Below are positions 3 to 4,991 of a stretch of DNA of 4,991 nt, piece after piece. The notes beneath the pieces were generated by a model. The model saw only the letters and a program-made list of their open reading frames with translations, made no database searches and had not been told where the DNA came from. Every line of letters starts with the position of its first letter. Within the stretch, counting starts at the first letter, position 1. The position numbers and the translations under genes were made by a program. This DNA comes from a virus (lineage: Duplodnaviria > Heunggongvirae > Uroviricota > Caudoviricetes): IMG/VR virus record IMGVR_UViG_2706794678_000008; one strand, written 5' to 3'.

Positions 3-2748
3 TCAGAAACGAACGCATCATCAAGCGCCAGTAGCGCAGCTTCCTCGGCGACGGCGGCTGCAAATTCTGCGAAGGCGGCCAAAACGTCCGAGACGAACGC
101 CAGGTCTTCTGAAACGGCAGCGGGACAGAGTGCCTCAGCTGCGGCAGGCTCAAAAACAGCGGCTGCGTCGTCTGCCAGCGCCGCGTCAACAAGTGCCGGG
201 CAGGCCTCAGCCAGTGCCACCGCCGCCGGAAAATCGGCAGAAAGCGCCGCATCGTCTGCTTCAACAGCCACAACGAAGGCTGGCGAAGCCACTGAACAGG
301 CCAGCGCAGCAGCGAGGTCTGCTTCCGCAGCGAAGACATCCGAAACGAACGCGAAAGCGTCGGAAACAAGCGCAGAATCCTCAAAAACGGCTGCCGCATC
401 GTCAGCCAGTTCGGCGGCGTCATCGGCATCATCGGCGTCTGCTTCAAAAGATGAGGCGACCAGACAAGCGTCAGCAGCGAAGAGCAGCGCCACGACGGCA
501 TCCACGAAGGCGACAGAGGCTGCTGGCAGTGCGACGGCGGNNNNNNNNNNNNNNNNNNNNNNNNNNNNNNNNNNNNNNNNNNNNNNNNNNNNNNNNNNNN
601 NNNNNNNNNNNNNNNNNNNNNNNNNNNNNNNNNNNNNNNNNNNNNNNNNNNNNNNNNNNNNNNNNNNNNNNNNNNNNNNNNNNNNNNNNNNNNNNNNNNN
701 NNNNNNNNNNNNNNNNNNNNNNNNNNNNNNNNNNNNNNNNNNNNNNNNNNNNNNNNNNNNNNNNNNNNNNNNNNNNNNNNNNNNNNNNNNNNNNNNNNNN
801 NNNNNNNNNNNNNNNNNNNNCGGCGTCATCGGCATCATCGGCGTCTGCTTCAAAAGATGAGGCGACCAGACAGGCGTCAGCAGCGAAGGGCAGCGCCACG
901 ACGGCATCCACGAAGGCGACAGAGGCTGCTGGTAGTGCGACGGCAGCAGCTCAGAGCAAAAGTACGGCGGAATCTGCAGCAACGCGCGCTGAGACAGCGG
1001 CAAAACGGGCAGAGGATATTGCATCCGCCGTGGCGCTTGAGGATGCGAGCACGACGAAAAAGGGGATAGTACAGCTCAGTAGTGCGACTAACAGCACTTC
1101 CGAGTCACTGGCGGCAACACCAAAAGCCGTTAAGGCCGCGTATGACCTGGCTAACGGGAAATACACCGCACAGGATGCAACGACAGCACAGAAAGGGATA
1201 ATCCAGCTAAGCAGCGCGACCAACAGCACGTCTGAAACGCTGGCGGCAACGCCAAAGGCAGTAAAAGCAGCCAATGACAATGCTGAGAAACGTCTGCAGA
1301 AAGATCAGAACGGTGCGGATATCCCTGGCAAAGACACCTTTACGAAAAATATTGGTGCCTGCCGTGCCTTCGGTGGGTCAGTAAGCACAACAACAGGAAA
1401 CTGGACGACTGCACAGTTTATCGAGTGGCTGGATTCTCAGGGAGCATTTAACCATCCATACTGGATGTGCAAGGGTTCCTGGTCTTATGGCAATAATAAA
1501 ATCATTACTGATACTGGCTGCGGTAATATTCATCTCGCCGGAGCTGTCATTGAAGTAATGGGGATAAAGTCAGCGATGACGATCCGCATTACCACTCCGA
1601 CCACATCCAGCGGTGGCGGAACAACCAACGCCCAGTTTACCTATATTAATCACGGAACAGATTATTCACCTGGCTGGCGAAGGGACTATAACTCCAGAAA
1701 TAAGCCAACGGCATCAGAGATCGGGGCGCTACCGTCAGGTGGAACAGCAGTATCATCAGTTAATCTGGCTTCAAAAGGTCGGGTAGCCGCGCTGACAGAC
1801 AATACGCAGGGGGCAGCAGGTCTTGAGTTATACGAGGTGTATAACAACGGATATCCAACAGCGTATGGAAATATCATTCACCTGAAAGGGATGACAGCCG
1901 TTGGCGAAGGTGAGTTACTCATCGGCTGGAGTGGTACAAGCGGTGCTCATGCTCCGGCATTTATTCGTTCACGACGGGATACGACCGACGCAAACTGGTC
2001 GCCGTGGGCGCAGCTTTACACCTCGGCTCATCCTCCTGCAGAGTTTTATCCAGTCGGTGCACCAATCCCGTGGCCATCAGATACCGTTCCGTCTGGTTAT
2101 GCCCTGATGCAGGGGCAGACTTTTGACAAATCTGCTTACCCGAAACTTGCAGCCGCTTATCCGTCAGGCGTGATCCCTGATATGCGTGGCTGGACGATTA
2201 AGGGCAAGCCCGCCAGTGGTCGTGCCGTATTGTCTCAGGAACAGGATGGCATTAAATCGCACACCCACAGCGCCAGCGCATCCAGTACGGATTTGGGGAC
2301 GAAAACCACATCGTCGTTTGATTACGGCACTAAATCCACGAATAACACCGGGGCGCATACGCACAGTCTGAGCGGCTCTACAAGTTCAGCTGGGGCCCAC
2401 CAACATAGTCAGACTGGGCCCAGAACGAATAGCGGGAGTCAACCTACTGGAATGTTTCCGGCAGGGAGTACTCAAGTTAGCGGGACTAATCAGGTTGGTA
2501 TCAGTGGCTCATTAACCAGTGGCACCTCCCAATGGGTAGGTAAATCATCTTCAGAAGGAAACCATACACACTCACTGTCCGGCACAGCAGCATCTGCGGG
2601 TGCACACGCGCATACTGTCGGTATTGGTGCTCATACGCACTCTGTTGCGATTGGTTCACATGGACACACCATCACCGTTAACGCTGCTGGTAACGCGGAA
2701 AACACCGTCAAAAACATCGCATTTAACTATATTGTGAGGCTCGCATAA
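3..2748 (+). CDS. stf: Side tail fiber protein (lambda Stf-like), 5'-partial (gene begins upstream of window); reading frame interrupted by assembly gap 541-820
   Basis: Frame 3 is open without stops from position 3 to 540 and encodes Ala/Ser/Thr-rich repeats ([13 protein letters not shown]..., [21 protein letters not shown]...). After the gap the same protein continues in frame 1 (821-2748): the fiber motif [26 protein letters not shown] twice, a globular middle region, then a His-x-His-rich tip ending ...[31 protein letters not shown], stop TAA 2746-2748. The frame-1 Arg-rich translation before the gap in the ORF track (MPQLRQ...) is out of frame; the frame shift across the gap reflects an arbitrary gap length. 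Confidence 0.9.
415..944. repeat. Direct repeat flanking the gap: 415-538 and 821-944 (124 bp, 3 mismatches), coding the [21 protein letters not shown](S/G)[18 protein letters not shown] shaft repeat
   Basis: Direct comparison of the sequence on either side of the N run; the copies are offset by 406 bp (not a multiple of 3), so the true gap length and repeat copy number are unresolved. Confidence 0.85.
541..820. other. Assembly gap (280 N) inside the repetitive tail-fiber shaft coding region
   Basis: Uninterrupted run of n from 541 to 820, flanked on both sides by the same 124-bp sequence (415-538 and 821-944). Confidence 0.97.
1063..1272 (+). repeat. Two copies of a 26-aa phage tail-fiber motif G-I-[VI][23 protein letters not shown] (1063-1140 and 1195-1272), period 132 bp
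   Basis: Protein-level repeat with largely synonymous nucleotide divergence between copies; this motif is recalled from P2 gpH, lambda Stf and T4 fiber proteins. Confidence 0.8.
2361..2572 (+). other. Hypervariable block A of the fiber tip (encodes ...[64 protein letters not shown]...)
   Basis: Region where unit A and unit B lose nucleotide similarity; bounded by conserved His-x-His-containing flanks. Confidence 0.75.
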
Positions 2749-2750
2749 TG
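2736..2750 (+). promoter_or_regulatory. Shine-Dalgarno (GAGG) plus overlapping stop/start TAATG; translational coupling of stf to the downstream ORF
   Basis: GAGG at 2736-2739, 8 nt upstream of ATG 2748; TAA 2746-2748 shares one nucleotide with ATG 2748-2750. Confidence 0.6.
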
Positions 2751-3800
2751 GCATTCAGAATGAGTGAACAAGCACGGACCATAAAAATTTATAACCTGCT
2801 GGCCGGAACTAATGAATTTATTGGTGAAGGTGACGCATATATTCCGCCTCATACAGGTCTGCCTGCAAACAGTACCGATATTGCACCGCCAGATATTCCG
2901 GCTGGTTTCGTGGCTGTTTTCAACAGTGATGAGTCATCGTGGCATCTCGTTGAAGATCATCGGGGTAAAACGGTTTATGACGTGGCTTCCGGCGACGCGT
3001 TATTTATTTCTGAACTCGGTCCGTTACCGGAAAATGTTACCTGGTTATCGCCGGAAGGGGAGTTTCAGAAGTGGAACGGCACAGCCTGGGTGAAGGATAC
3101 GGAAGCAGAAAAACTGTTCCGGATCCGGGAGGCGGAAGAAACAAAAAACAACCTGATGCAGGTAGCCAGTGAGCATATTGCGCCGCTTCAGGATGCTGCA
3201 GATCTGGAAATTGCAACGGCTTATCCGTCAGGCGTGATCCCTGATATGCGTGGCTGGACGATTAAGGGCAAACCTGCCAGTGGTCGGGCCGTATTGTCTC
3301 AGGAACAGGACGGCATTAAATCGCATACCCACAGCGCCAGCGCATCCAGTACGGATTTGGGGACGAAAACCACATCGTCGTTTGATTACGGCACTAAATC
3401 CACGAATAACACTGGTGCGCATACCCATAGTTTAAGTGGCAGCACGAATGCAGCTGGTAATCACAGCCATAGAGATGGCCGTCGATTTAACCCCAGTGTT
3501 TTTAAAGATACTTATCAATATGGTTATACAAGCTCAGGTCAAAATACCTGGGGTGTACAAGGCTCAGTAGGTATGTCTACGGGGTGGTTAGCGAATACCA
3601 GTATAGATGGTAATCATAGCCATTCACTGTCCGGCACAGCAGCATCTGCAGGTGCACACGCGCATACTGTCGGTATTGGTGCTCATACGCACTCCGTTGC
3701 GATTGGTTCACATGGACACACCATCACCGTTAACGCTGCTGGTAACGCGGAAAACACCGTCAAAAACATCGCATTTAACTATATTGTGAGGCTCGCATAA
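2748..3800 (+). CDS. Chimeric ORF: tail fiber assembly protein N-terminal domain (about aa 1-157) fused in frame to a duplicated side-tail-fiber C-terminal tip (about aa 158-350)
   Basis: ATG 2748-2750 overlaps the stf stop (TAATG) with GAGG at 2736-2739. The N-terminal 157 aa ([44 protein letters not shown]...) are near-identical to the downstream tfa. From 3219 the ORF continues into [18 protein letters not shown]...[11 protein letters not shown], matching the C-terminus of the upstream fiber except for the hypervariable block. Stop TAA 3798-3800. Whether the fusion is a functional product or a by-product of the duplication is unknown. Confidence 0.7.
3425..3624 (+). other. Hypervariable block B of the duplicated fiber tip (encodes ...[60 protein letters not shown]...)
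   Basis: Counterpart of block A in unit B; 12 bp shorter, more AT-rich and richer in aromatic residues; the same His-x-His positions are retained at both edges. Confidence 0.75.
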
Positions 3801-3802
3801 TG
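3788..3802 (+). promoter_or_regulatory. Shine-Dalgarno (GAGG) plus overlapping stop/start TAATG; translational coupling into tfa
   Basis: Identical arrangement to 2736-2750, carried within the duplicated unit: GAGG 3788-3791, TAA 3798-3800, ATG 3800-3802. Confidence 0.6.
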
Positions 3803-4381
3803 GCATTCAGAATGAGTGAACAAGCACGGACCATAAAAATTTATAACCTGCTGGCCGGAACTAATGAATTTATTGGTGAAGGTGACGCATATATTCCGCC
3901 TCATACAGGTCTGCCTGCAAACAGTACCGATATTGCACCGCCAGATATTCCGGCTGGTTTCGTGGCTGTTTTCAACAGTGATGAGTCATCGTGGCATCTC
4001 GTTGAAGATCATCGGGGTAAAACGGTTTATGACGTGGCTTCCGGCGACGCGTTATTTATTTCTGAACTCGGCTCATTACCGGAAAATGTCACCTGGTTAT
4101 CCCCGGAAGGGGAGTTTCAGAAGTGGAACGGCACAGCCTGGGTGAAAGATGCAGAAGCAGAAAAACTGTTCCGGATCCGGGAGGCGGAAGAAACAAAAAA
4201 CAGCCTGATGCAGGTAGCCAGTGAGCATATAGCGCCGCTTCAGGATGCTGTGGATCTGGAGATCGCAACGGAGAAAGAAACCTTGTTGCTGGAAGCTTGG
4301 AAAAAGTATCGGGTGTTGCTGAACCGTGTTGATACATCAACTGCACCGGATATTGAATGGCCAGTAGCACCTATAGGGTAA
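3800..4381 (+). CDS. tfa: Tail fiber assembly protein (lambda Tfa family), full length, 193 aa
   Basis: ATG 3800-3802 overlaps the preceding stop (TAATG) with GAGG at 3788-3791. The protein [44 protein letters not shown]...[34 protein letters not shown] is recalled as closely similar to lambda Tfa and E. coli prophage Tfa proteins. Stop TAA 4379-4381. Confidence 0.92.
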
Positions 4382-4991
4382 ATTCGTAATGATTACCTAA
4401 ATACGTTATTCTTTTGTTAAAAAAGTGATTTTGCTATAGGTAGGGAGTATGTTCTTGGATTAAGAATAAAAAATCGCCATGAAAGAGCTTCATGGCGAGT
4501 ACATAAACGTACAAAATGTGATGAAAGTAGAGTGGCGTAAGCCACTATATTAAGATATGACAATAGCGAAGAAAAGTAAATAACATTTTATGGACGTTTA
4601 ATTGTTAATTATAAAAACTAGAGTGCCCGATATTGTTTATCTTGCTTTAAAATAATGTACTCAAACCAAATTTTTGAGCTAAAAGCTCAAATAATATAAA
4701 TGCAATAATAATGTTTAATAAGACAATTAGCTTGCTTTGTATTTTCATTTCGGAATACTGTTAAGTAACTTTGATGACCCTAACAATAGATCGGAATTTT
4801 CTTAGAGTCAATGGTCACTGTTTTTGCTTGCAAAGCAAATGTTTTGGTGGTTATAAGTCGTCTTAATATAGTCACGCATGCAACTTGTTCCATGCGGAGA
4901 TTAAAGATTGGAATATAACGCGAAGATGGAATTAAATTACATTTGCAATAATTAATTTATTATTACTCAATAATTACCGATATTATTATTG
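4382..4991. other. AT-rich non-coding region downstream of tfa; no ORF of 60 aa or more on either strand
   Basis: Abrupt GC drop immediately after the tfa stop; only very short ORFs (35 aa or fewer) without convincing ribosome-binding sites; several small hairpins (e.g. ttgagct-aaa-agctcaa at 4674-4690). Confidence 0.6.
4462..4497 (-). terminator. Putative rho-independent terminator for a leftward (minus-strand) transcript
   Basis: Perfect 9-bp stem cgccatgaa (4475-4483) / ttcatggcg (4489-4497) with 5-nt loop. On the minus strand the hairpin is followed by AUUUUUUAUU (complement of 4465-4474). On the plus strand the run is an A-tract upstream of the stem, so it is weaker as a tfa terminator, though bidirectional action is possible. 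Confidence 0.45.

Follow-up and report, generated by a model that had tools for sequence, protein, structure and literature searches.

Invertible tail-fiber cassettes are known from Mu (the G segment), P1 (C), and e14 (P), with the invertases Gin, Cin, and Pin, respectively. Tandem duplications formed by illegitimate recombination were reportedly described in λ by Emmons and co-workers in the 1970s, and Tétart et al. are said to have reported in 1996 that the T4 gp37 tip is duplicated between His-box motifs. Orr-Weaver and Szostak's model of double-strand-break repair, with integration of a gapped plasmid and repair of its gap, was reportedly drawn from yeast and engineered plasmids. Among prophages, λ recombines with Rac and Qin within stf/tfa at 88 to 95% identity (De Paepe et al. 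2014, PMC3945230), and a gene-conversion patch in Qin derived from Rac has been documented in E. coli K-12 ER2796 (PMC4444293).

The locus analyzed here, a 4,991-nucleotide window from a caudovirus record (IMGVR_UViG_2706794678_000008), reflects prophage recombination of a common type, or perhaps the confusion, during assembly, of two loci that we call R and C; it bears on no open question and involves no new mechanism. The window comes from a gapped scaffold, with a run of Ns at 541–820, and sister Shigella sonnei assemblies fragment here into contigs of 1.7 to 3.1 kb. Both references are contigs from draft assemblies of other isolates. The R locus, from S. sonnei L014 (GCA_001249355.1), carries the tip-1 side tail fiber gene stf and the tail fiber assembly gene tfa and adjoins the attλ/bio flank. 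The C locus, from S. sonnei L015 (GCA_001251215.1), is a natural tip-2 stf with a K-12 tfaQ-type tfa and adjoins sitABCD; the Pfam content of its neighbors (ABC-3, ABC_tran, and ZnuA) is that of the annotated sitBCD flank of the compared E. coli loci.

All genes, blocks, and segments given here lie on the plus strand. The gene stf, with tip 1 as its receptor-binding end, occupies 1–2748, its 5′ end lying outside the window. The translation of 823–2745 matches Pfam Phage_fiber_2, Collar, and Phage_fiber; with its Phage_fiber_2 repeats, Collar, Phage_fiber/HxH repeats, and a position after J-lom and before tfa in homologous loci, the gene is of the λ Stf type, and a related locus shows the J-lom-stf-tfa context adjoining ybhB-bioA. 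Within stf, copy A of a 5′ conserved block (2155–2408, R type; repeat family D2, offset +1064) is followed by the tip-1 variable segment between HxH motifs (2409–2552), which the natural tip-1 fibers of E. coli SCU-152 and SCU-111 match at 100% identity. Copy A of a 3′ conserved block, found by the repeat comparison (2573–3218), comprises the end of stf (to 2748) and tfa codons 1–157. Next come copy B of the 5′ block (3219–3472, C type), 100% identical to E. coli S51 and to L015, the tip-2 variable segment (3473–3604), 100% identical to L006, L007, and L015, and copy B of the 3′ block (3625–4270). A complete R-type tfa of 193 aa (3800–4381) is identical to that of L014 and encodes exactly the protein WP_052941040.1, named Shigella sonnei; it matches Caudo_TAP (PF02413; domain roles in PMC9608196) at full length, its conserved C-terminal helical part included, over positions 1–130 of 131 (E = 4e-44). 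The AT-rich flank that follows tfa in the R prophage (4382–4991, no strand) is 100% identical to L014 and 99.4% identical to E. coli loci adjoining ybhB-bioA. Tip 1 and tip 2, each known in nature as a single-copy stf-tfa pair, have no similarity to one another, and the 5′ blocks of the two units are 88 to 90% identical (25 differences in 254 bp, with identical runs of 53, 23, and 86 bp). Judged from these comparisons, neither unit was ever a copy of the other: the tips lack any relationship, and the 5′ blocks differ to this extent.

Gapless comparison of copies A and B at an offset of +1052 recovered the step in identity on which the original prediction was built (about 455 bp with 2 differences, then about 190 bp with about 15), its figures lying within a few bases of ours. 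Between 2573–3019 and 3625–4071, 2 of 447 positions differ (2598, G/A; 2643, T/C), whereas 14 of 199 differ between 3020–3218 and 4072–4270, leaving 93.0% identity (Fisher exact test, p = 3.2e-6). These distal sites (3020, 3021, 3023, 3038, 3050, 3095, 3099, 3101, 3151, 3179, 3199, 3200, 3209, and 3212) include four amino-acid changes, P92S, T118A, N135S, and A151V, exactly those quoted earlier, and the other 10 are synonymous. The differences at 2598 and 2643 track tip type in every natural allele; the truly identical tract is therefore 2644–3019 = 3696–4071 (376 bp). Counted in this way, the substitutions cluster as in ectopic gene conversion, with 0/376 differences against 14/199 (p = 2.6e-7). 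The shared tract carries a T at 2906, a site occupied by C in 8/8 natural alleles compared, and a search of 5,426 complete E. coli genomes with 2644–3019 returned no full-length match above 98.7%. Among eight natural single-copy alleles, 2644–3019 holds 42% of the pairwise differences; at that ratio the chance of all 14 falling distally is 4e-4, so that uneven conservation fails to account for the step.

Comparison with the two references shows that the step is instead a haplotype switch between two lambdoid prophage tail-fiber loci, both of them found in S. sonnei. The initial references were the E. coli natural alleles L004–L011, against which the differences were already seen as pre-existing polymorphisms; a three-haplotype history based on that comparison was replaced, as L014 and L015 account for every base with two parents. 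From 1014 to 4991, every base is matched at 100% by the R or the C locus with no private change, and the window exceeds R by a single 1,052-bp unit. With one unit removed, 1014–2900 together with 3953–4991 matches L014 at 2,926/2,926 bases; the only sites that separate L014 from copy A are the 14 distal ones, and the only sites that separate it from copy B are eight tip-linked ones. The donor side is equally exact, since L015, a different isolate of the species, is 100% identical over 2907–3219 and 3217–3793, and all four R/C segment identities proved true when checked.

Read along the window, R extends from the left, with 1014–3019 100% identical to L014, and the copy A tract at 2644–3019 is the R haplotype, including the rare T2906. 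The switch from R to C falls in 2907–3019, between the last R-only marker (2906) and the first C-only marker (3020), an interval in which R and C are the same throughout. The K-12 tfaQ-type tfa segment of C then occupies 3020–3218, up to codon 157; it contains all 14 differences from copy B and shows 0/199 differences from K-12 tfaQ-type alleles, from L008–L011, and from L015. Beyond the join come C stf, purely C type from the first base past the junction, then tip 2 and the stf end. The sequence returns to R within 3696–3793, between the last C-only marker (3695) and the first R-only marker (3794), again with R and C the same throughout, and remains R to the window end; the stretch opposite the distal segment, 4072–4270, is 100% identical to the R locus. 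R's 2742–2906 occurs in both units, with six R/C marker sites at 2742, 2772, 2795, 2834, 2864, and 2906 and their partners at +1052. On either side of it, R and C share exact stretches of 98 bp (2644–2741) and 113 bp (2907–3019). These alignments show that the 14 distal substitutions are exactly the allelic differences between R and C and that the identical tract consists of two occurrences of R's own haplotype. Gene conversion, the original interpretation, is the right class in the broad sense because the step lies where recombination has joined paralogous genes of two prophages, and an R-type stretch (at least 2742–2906) in both copies is exactly what a gap-repair or conversion event would leave. 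The part of that interpretation that did not survive is the single duplicated block with a re-homogenized proximal part, as the distal 14 are pre-existing alleles and the tips are unrelated.

The two units meet head to tail at 3211–3219, where tfa codon 157 passes in frame into stf Ala-Tyr-Pro-Ser-Gly at the microhomology TTGCANCGG. The match, TTGCA[A/G]CGG, holds at 8/9 nt, with the crossover inside an exact CGG (3217–3219). With a slash marking the join, C tfa reads AAATTGCAACGG/AGGAAG and C stf reads AACTTGCAGCGG/CTTATCC, and the junction-spanning sequence is TTGCAACGGCTTATCC. Upstream of the junction, 15/25 positions match (p = 2e-4), and the longest exact match linking tfa codon 157 and stf is 5 nt. 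Such a short-homology head-to-tail junction is characteristic of illegitimate tandem duplication; a duplication within a single parent was nevertheless rejected on the unrelated tips, the 25/254 differences in the 5′ blocks, and their R-type versus C-type identity.

The join creates an ORF of 350 aa (2748–3800 in the ORF list) that consists of Tfa residues 1–157 followed by the C-terminal 193 aa of the tip-2 Stf. Caudo_TAP covers only profile positions 1–97 of 131 in this fusion, together with a Phage_fiber repeat, and the first tfa copy (2748–3218) falls short of the full-length domain, its last 36 codons being replaced by stf sequence. A 201-bp junction query found no place covering at least 80% of it in the 5,426 complete E. 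coli genomes, a junction 26-mer had 0 matches in GTDB species representatives and 0 in IMG/VR, exact look-up of the fusion protein gave no record, and a homologue search with it gave no Tfa-to-Stf fusion. Two JGI metagenome matches to a junction 20-mer (L001 and L002) were without BLAST similarity to the window and were dismissed as chance. Two-piece matches (H51 and H52) were likewise rejected as tandem arrangements, both being ordinary stf-tfa loci.

We propose, with a probability of roughly 0.6, that the locus arose by recent ectopic recombination between two resident prophages, giving a heterologous two-tip tandem array and the Tfa′::′Stf fusion ORF, and we infer that both R and C reside in this strain. 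In the cell, a C segment already carrying the head-to-tail junction would have been transferred into R by ectopic, homology-driven recombination. In one possible route, a C-unit fragment, gapped or linear, integrates and its gap is repaired from R (double-strand-break repair with crossover); another is break repair with template switches from R to C at homology, from C to C at microhomology, and from C to R at homology. Either product would retain tip-1 stf and tfa, both intact, and gain a silent tip-2 cassette within the in-frame fusion ORF. Such an array would be expected to be unstable, with deletion inside the 376-bp identical tract leading to exactly the L014 sequence and deletion inside the 5′ blocks to a tip-2 fiber. 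Counting against an origin in the cell are the three switches needed in 1 kb, the junction being a singleton in the collections searched, and the availability of a simpler cellular event, a plain tandem duplication at C, which an assembler could thread into R.

The resemblance to the λ × Rac/Qin hybrids and the ER2796 patch lies in a substitution cluster with a perfect donor at another prophage locus, a recipient backbone unaltered outside the patch, and exchange points in short stretches of identity within stf/tfa DNA that is 88 to 97% identical. Unlike in those cases, the transferred segment here holds the junction of tfa codon 157 with stf, the recipient becomes 1,052 bp longer and acquires a second tip, and donor and recipient are known from the assemblies of other isolates. 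With the λ and T4 tandem duplications the locus shares a new head-to-tail junction formed where a few bases are homologous, a spacing of about 1 kb between direct repeats, and expected loss by homologous recombination, and with the gp37 case also the connection between HxH-motif fiber tips and host range; it departs from them in that its units come from two parents (tip 1 from R, tip 2 from C) and that the duplication crosses a gene boundary, fusing a chaperone gene to a fiber gene. As in gapped-plasmid integration, there is a tandem in which both flanking repeats carry recipient (R) alleles across the gap at 2742–2906 with donor DNA between them, although here the route would be a reconstruction, and the donor fragment must already carry the microhomology junction. 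The Mu G, P1 C, and e14 P segments likewise present two alternative fiber C termini, each with a tfa, at one locus, and the fiber's constant N-terminal portion is connected to just one C terminus. In contrast to those segments, the cassettes here are in direct orientation with no inverted crossover sites or invertase in the window, and switching, if it occurs, would run one way by homologous deletion instead of reversibly by inversion.

An assembly artifact, which the original prediction raised as consensus collapse, is a possible explanation that we consider less probable, though by no means negligible. A strain with a single-copy, L014-like R locus and a C locus could have had the two threaded together by a short-read assembler or scaffolder through the exact shared stretches at 2644–2741 and 2907–3019, so that R's tract was written twice, with the junction either real in a simple tandem duplication at C or derived from chimeric reads. 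Several observations favor this: two loci of the same species account for all of 1014–4991 without a private change, both switches fall where R and C agree exactly (over 98 and 113 bp), as is typical of places where assemblies collapse with k-mers below about 100, and a single-copy contig that is otherwise identical exists (L014). The N gap in the scaffold, the breaking of sister S. sonnei assemblies into 1.7- to 3.1-kb contigs in this region, and the absence of the junction from every other collection searched point the same way. However, the longest exact match at the junction is 5 nt, so that a de Bruijn graph would be unable to invent it, and the 8/9-nt microhomology and the kept frame resemble a DNA join rather than abutted contigs. 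Gaps elsewhere in the scaffold are given as Ns, and an unbridged contig join would therefore be expected to appear as Ns too. If C itself were duplicated, the C tract would stand at twice the depth of R and collapse should favor C, but it is the R alleles that are seen twice.

It is very unlikely that one stf-end/tfa unit was duplicated, mutated, and then re-homogenized by gene conversion over its proximal ~450 bp. The direct repeats 1,052 bp apart, the head-to-tail junction, and the perfectly identical 376-bp tract with its rare variant would fit such a history, but 14/14 distal differences belong to a pre-existing allele (0/199 against K-12 tfaQ-type and L015) and none is private, the unrelated tips are each 100% identical to a different natural fiber, and copy B is 100% C type from the first base after the junction. 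Differential constraint, with purifying selection on the end of stf and on the N-terminal domain of Tfa while a truncated, functionless distal tfa′ drifts, is highly improbable: per-site polymorphism in the distal tfa of natural alleles is indeed about 2.5-fold higher than in 2644–3019, and the fused tfa′ is without its last 36 codons, yet 10/14 changes are synonymous, the differences exactly equal an existing allele, and the 0:14 split has P = 4e-4 under the natural-pair ratio. Programmed tip diversification, by a diversity-generating retroelement or a site-specific invertible or shufflon cassette, is hardly credible despite two alternative receptor-binding tips standing side by side and a pin-type recombinase adjoining tfaQ in relatives, K-12 Qin among them: the substitutions are of mixed types rather than adenine-specific (T>C, C>T, G>A, G>C, and A>G), the window contains no reverse transcriptase or recombinase ORF, and the cassettes are direct rather than inverted and lack flanking inverted crossover sites, the only inverted repeats in the window being two that are weak and unrelated.

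Should the proposed recombination between resident prophages be real, the locus would offer a clean, base-resolved natural example of co-resident prophages trading receptor-binding modules, with parental haplotypes at 100%, homologous exchange intervals of 98 and 113 bp, a microhomology junction placed to 3 nt, and a sister isolate (L014) with the exact sequence left after array deletion. It would also support the view of defective prophages as stores of parts for tail-fiber evolution. A further and doubtful suggestion, to which we give only a small chance, is that the array is a captured intermediate of tail-fiber tip exchange, in which the tip-1 fiber is expressed, the tip-2 cassette is silent, and a single chaperone gene is shared. 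Deletion in the 3′ block would then restore the tip-1 fiber, the L014 form of the sister isolate, and deletion in the 5′ block (identical runs of 53 and 86 bp) would give a tip-2 fiber, so that parts taken from a neighboring prophage would provide a host-range switch that is driven by recombination and works in one direction.

Loci of this kind are spots where short-read assemblies need checking against reads. The 350-aa "tail fiber" ORF is a chaperone-fiber fusion and should be annotated as neither gene. The homologue search with this protein returned only other deletion fusions, namely terminase::stf, Nu1-like::stf, and stf::tfa.

The window takes in the distal end of the tail region of a lambdoid prophage and contains three reading frames: the side tail fibre gene stf, whose 5' end is outside the window and which runs across Ns at 541-820 to end at 2748; a middle ORF of 350 codons (2748-3800); and tfa, a complete gene for tail fibre assembly (3800-4381). 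An AT-rich flank lies 3' of tfa, and the equivalent flank in related E. coli genomes adjoins ybhB-bioA on the attλ side. Two units in direct orientation make up the locus. Of these, unit A (2155-3218) comprises a 5' block, a tip-1 variable segment (2409-2552) and a 3' block, and unit B (3219-4270, then the remainder of tfa) comprises a 5' block, a tip-2 variable segment (3473-3604) and a 3' block. Between the units, 25 of 254 bases differ in the 5' block, and the two tips are unrelated sequences. The array leaves the tip-1 fibre gene and one tfa intact, with the middle ORF fusing Tfa codons 1-157 in frame to the last 193 fibre codons; Pfam matches this ORF to positions 1-97 of the 131-position Caudo_TAP profile only, followed by a Phage_fiber repeat. 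The conserved C-terminal helical part of Tfa, a putative driver of trimerisation (PMC9608196), is missing from the fused Tfa', and the 'Stf part lacks the entire N-terminal fibre portion upstream of Ala-Tyr-Pro-Ser-Gly; the Tfa'::'Stf fusion is therefore probably a by-product.

The original prediction described a step in identity between the two copies of the 3' block, and our counts bear it out. Compared with its partner at an offset of +1052, the segment 2573-3019 (447 bp) has two differences (2598 and 2643), and the segment 3020-3218 (199 bp) has 14, a significant step (Fisher p=3e-6). Four of these 14 distal changes alter the protein (P92S, T118A, N135S and A151V) and 10 are synonymous. 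Pairwise comparison of eight natural single-copy alleles places 42% of the differences in 2644-3019, so that the 0:14 split has P=4e-4 once the greater variability of distal tfa is allowed for.

The full Tfa protein, looked up by exact match, is WP_052941040.1, named Shigella sonnei, and led to L014, a 3,148-bp S. sonnei contig (GCA_001249355.1) that represents a tip-1 prophage locus, here termed R. When one 1,052-bp unit is removed, the window matches L014 at 2,926 of 2,926 bases; the 14 distal sites are the only differences between L014 and the 3' block of unit A, and eight tip-linked sites the only ones between L014 and that of unit B. The locus termed C, a tip-2 stf with a tfa, is found on another S. 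sonnei contig, L015 (GCA_001251215.1), where the neighbouring genes match Pfam ABC-3, ABC_tran and ZnuA, the content of the sitABCD genes annotated beside related E. coli loci. Across the window, 1014-3019 is 100% identical to R, 2907-3219 to C in the tfa register, 3217-3793 to C in the stf/tfa register (stf plus the start of tfa) and 3696-4991 again to R. Because L014 and L015 account for these segments at 100%, the R-to-C switch falls within 2907-3019 and the C-to-R switch within 3696-3793, intervals throughout which R and C are identical. By the same accounting, both units have the R alleles at 2742, 2772, 2795, 2834, 2864 and 2906 (C, G, C, C, T and T, against T, C, T, T, A and C in C), and the 14 substitutions are, in terms of sequence, simply R against C. 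The earlier interpretation is thus partly right: it correctly attributes the step to recombination, but re-homogenisation after divergence was not the process, since the substitutions separate R from C.

The differences between copies are natural alleles. Each tip is found in complete E. coli genomes within an ordinary single-copy stf-tfa pair (tip 1 in SCU-152 and SCU-111; tip 2 in D6, S51 and CFSAN064035), and the proximal differences at 2598 and 2643 go with tip type. Site-by-site allele comparison identifies the 14 distal differences as pre-existing polymorphisms, with 3020-3218 of unit A differing from K-12 tfaQ-type alleles at 0 of 199 positions. The identical tract 2644-3019 includes T2906 and an internal haplotype switch, both common to the two copies, and has no full-length match above 98.7% in 5,426 complete E. 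coli genomes; its identity is therefore due to very recent descent, or to assembly, and not to invariance of the region. The R tfa is itself mosaic, being SCU-152-like up to 2864 and again from 3020 and resembling K-12 tfaQ and C at 2909-2975, with the rare T2906 right at the switch. This stretch (2906-2975, also 3958-4027) resembles a scar left by an earlier exchange between these same two types of prophage. The same tfa alleles also occur in at least three downstream contexts: a pin-type recombinase gene directly follows tfaQ in K-12 Qin and E. coli SCU-152 (4033-4623 in locus L004 and 3778-4368 in locus L008), the same place in the window (4382-4991) and in L014 is AT-rich flank without an ORF, and in L015 it holds sit-type transporter genes.

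At the tfa-stf junction, C tfa reads AAATTGCAACGG/AGGAAG and C stf reads AACTTGCAGCGG/CTTATCC (slash, junction point), and the window reads AAATTGCAACGGCTTATCC. The junction sequence is TTGCAACGGCTTATCC, for which the natural neighbours are GCAACGGAGGAAG in C tfa and GCAGCGGCTTATCC in C stf. Microhomology extends over 8 of 9 nt with the crossover inside CGG, 15 of 25 positions upstream match (p=2e-4), and the reading frame is kept. The junction was not found in complete E. coli genomes, GTDB species representatives, IMG/VR or JGI metagenomes, where two 20-mer matches proved to be unrelated DNA, and no Tfa-to-Stf fusion protein is on record. Deletion fusions ending in the same stf C-terminal module are numerous in public assemblies, including terminase GpA N-terminus::stf (P0016, 480 contigs), Nu1-like::stf (P0002) and stf::tfa (P0001); P0003 and P0016 have a common terminase breakpoint (…SARVGY) and different stf entry points. 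These stf-ended fusions suggest repeated microhomology deletions in decaying prophages.

Sequence comparison shows that the window combines R and C in a mosaic with a single microhomology junction, and we estimate a probability of roughly 60% that this mosaic as assembled is the true structure. It most likely arose by ectopic recombination in a strain with both prophages, in which a C segment bearing the head-to-tail junction moved into R. By one route, a gapped C-unit fragment would integrate ends-in and its gap (2742-2906) would be repaired from R, leaving R alleles in both repeats. Alternatively, break repair could proceed with template switches from R to C by homology, from C to C by microhomology and from C to R by homology. 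Both routes are standard, and each would produce exactly the observed outcome. Homeologous exchange inside stf/tfa has been shown experimentally for λ with Rac or Qin (PMC3945230), and a Qin-from-Rac conversion patch is on record (PMC4444293). The window works like other ectopic recombination between prophage tail-fibre modules, and the class tests that could be run agreed with this assignment.

A mis-threaded or chimeric assembly is a less likely though appreciable alternative. The scaffold from which the window derives is gapped, sister assemblies break up in the stf/tfa region, and R and C are exactly identical over ~100 bp in each switch interval, the kind of stretch at which short-read graphs collapse. 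However, no shared k-mer could create the junction, whose microhomology and kept frame speak for joining at the DNA level, and other gaps of the same scaffold are written as Ns. Moreover, a duplication at the C locus would give greater depth to the C tract than to the R tract, and collapse would favour C alleles, whereas the window has R alleles. Illegitimate tandem duplication leaves this kind of junction but requires both units to come from the same parent, which those of the window do not. An invertible cassette and a DGR were both rejected for the array.

Frequent deletion would be expected from the perfect direct repeat of 376 bp, and the deletion product is exactly L014. Other repeats are also present in the window. 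In the N-terminal, Ala/Ser-rich part of stf, the 280-base N run at 541-820 is flanked by two 124-nt direct repeats (415-538 and 821-944; 98% identical); the run resembles a gap in the scaffold, or masking, within repetitive coding sequence. A 107-nt direct repeat (1040-1146 and 1172-1278; 74% identical) corresponds to two Phage_fiber_2 repeats and is an ordinary internal repeat of this stf fibre family. Rfam RF02111 (IS009) matches tfa coding DNA on the plus strand, over the full model in the complete tfa (4143-4341; 218.6 bits) and over model positions 8-129 of 199 in the fused copy (3098-3219), where the match stops exactly at the tfa-stf junction; the family appears to derive from the 3' coding part of tfa genes rather than from an independent RNA gene. 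Finally, the AT-rich flank 3' of tfa contains an imperfect inverted repeat of 25 nt (4531-4555 and 4861-4885; 76% complementary, with 305 nt between the arms) that has no evident function.
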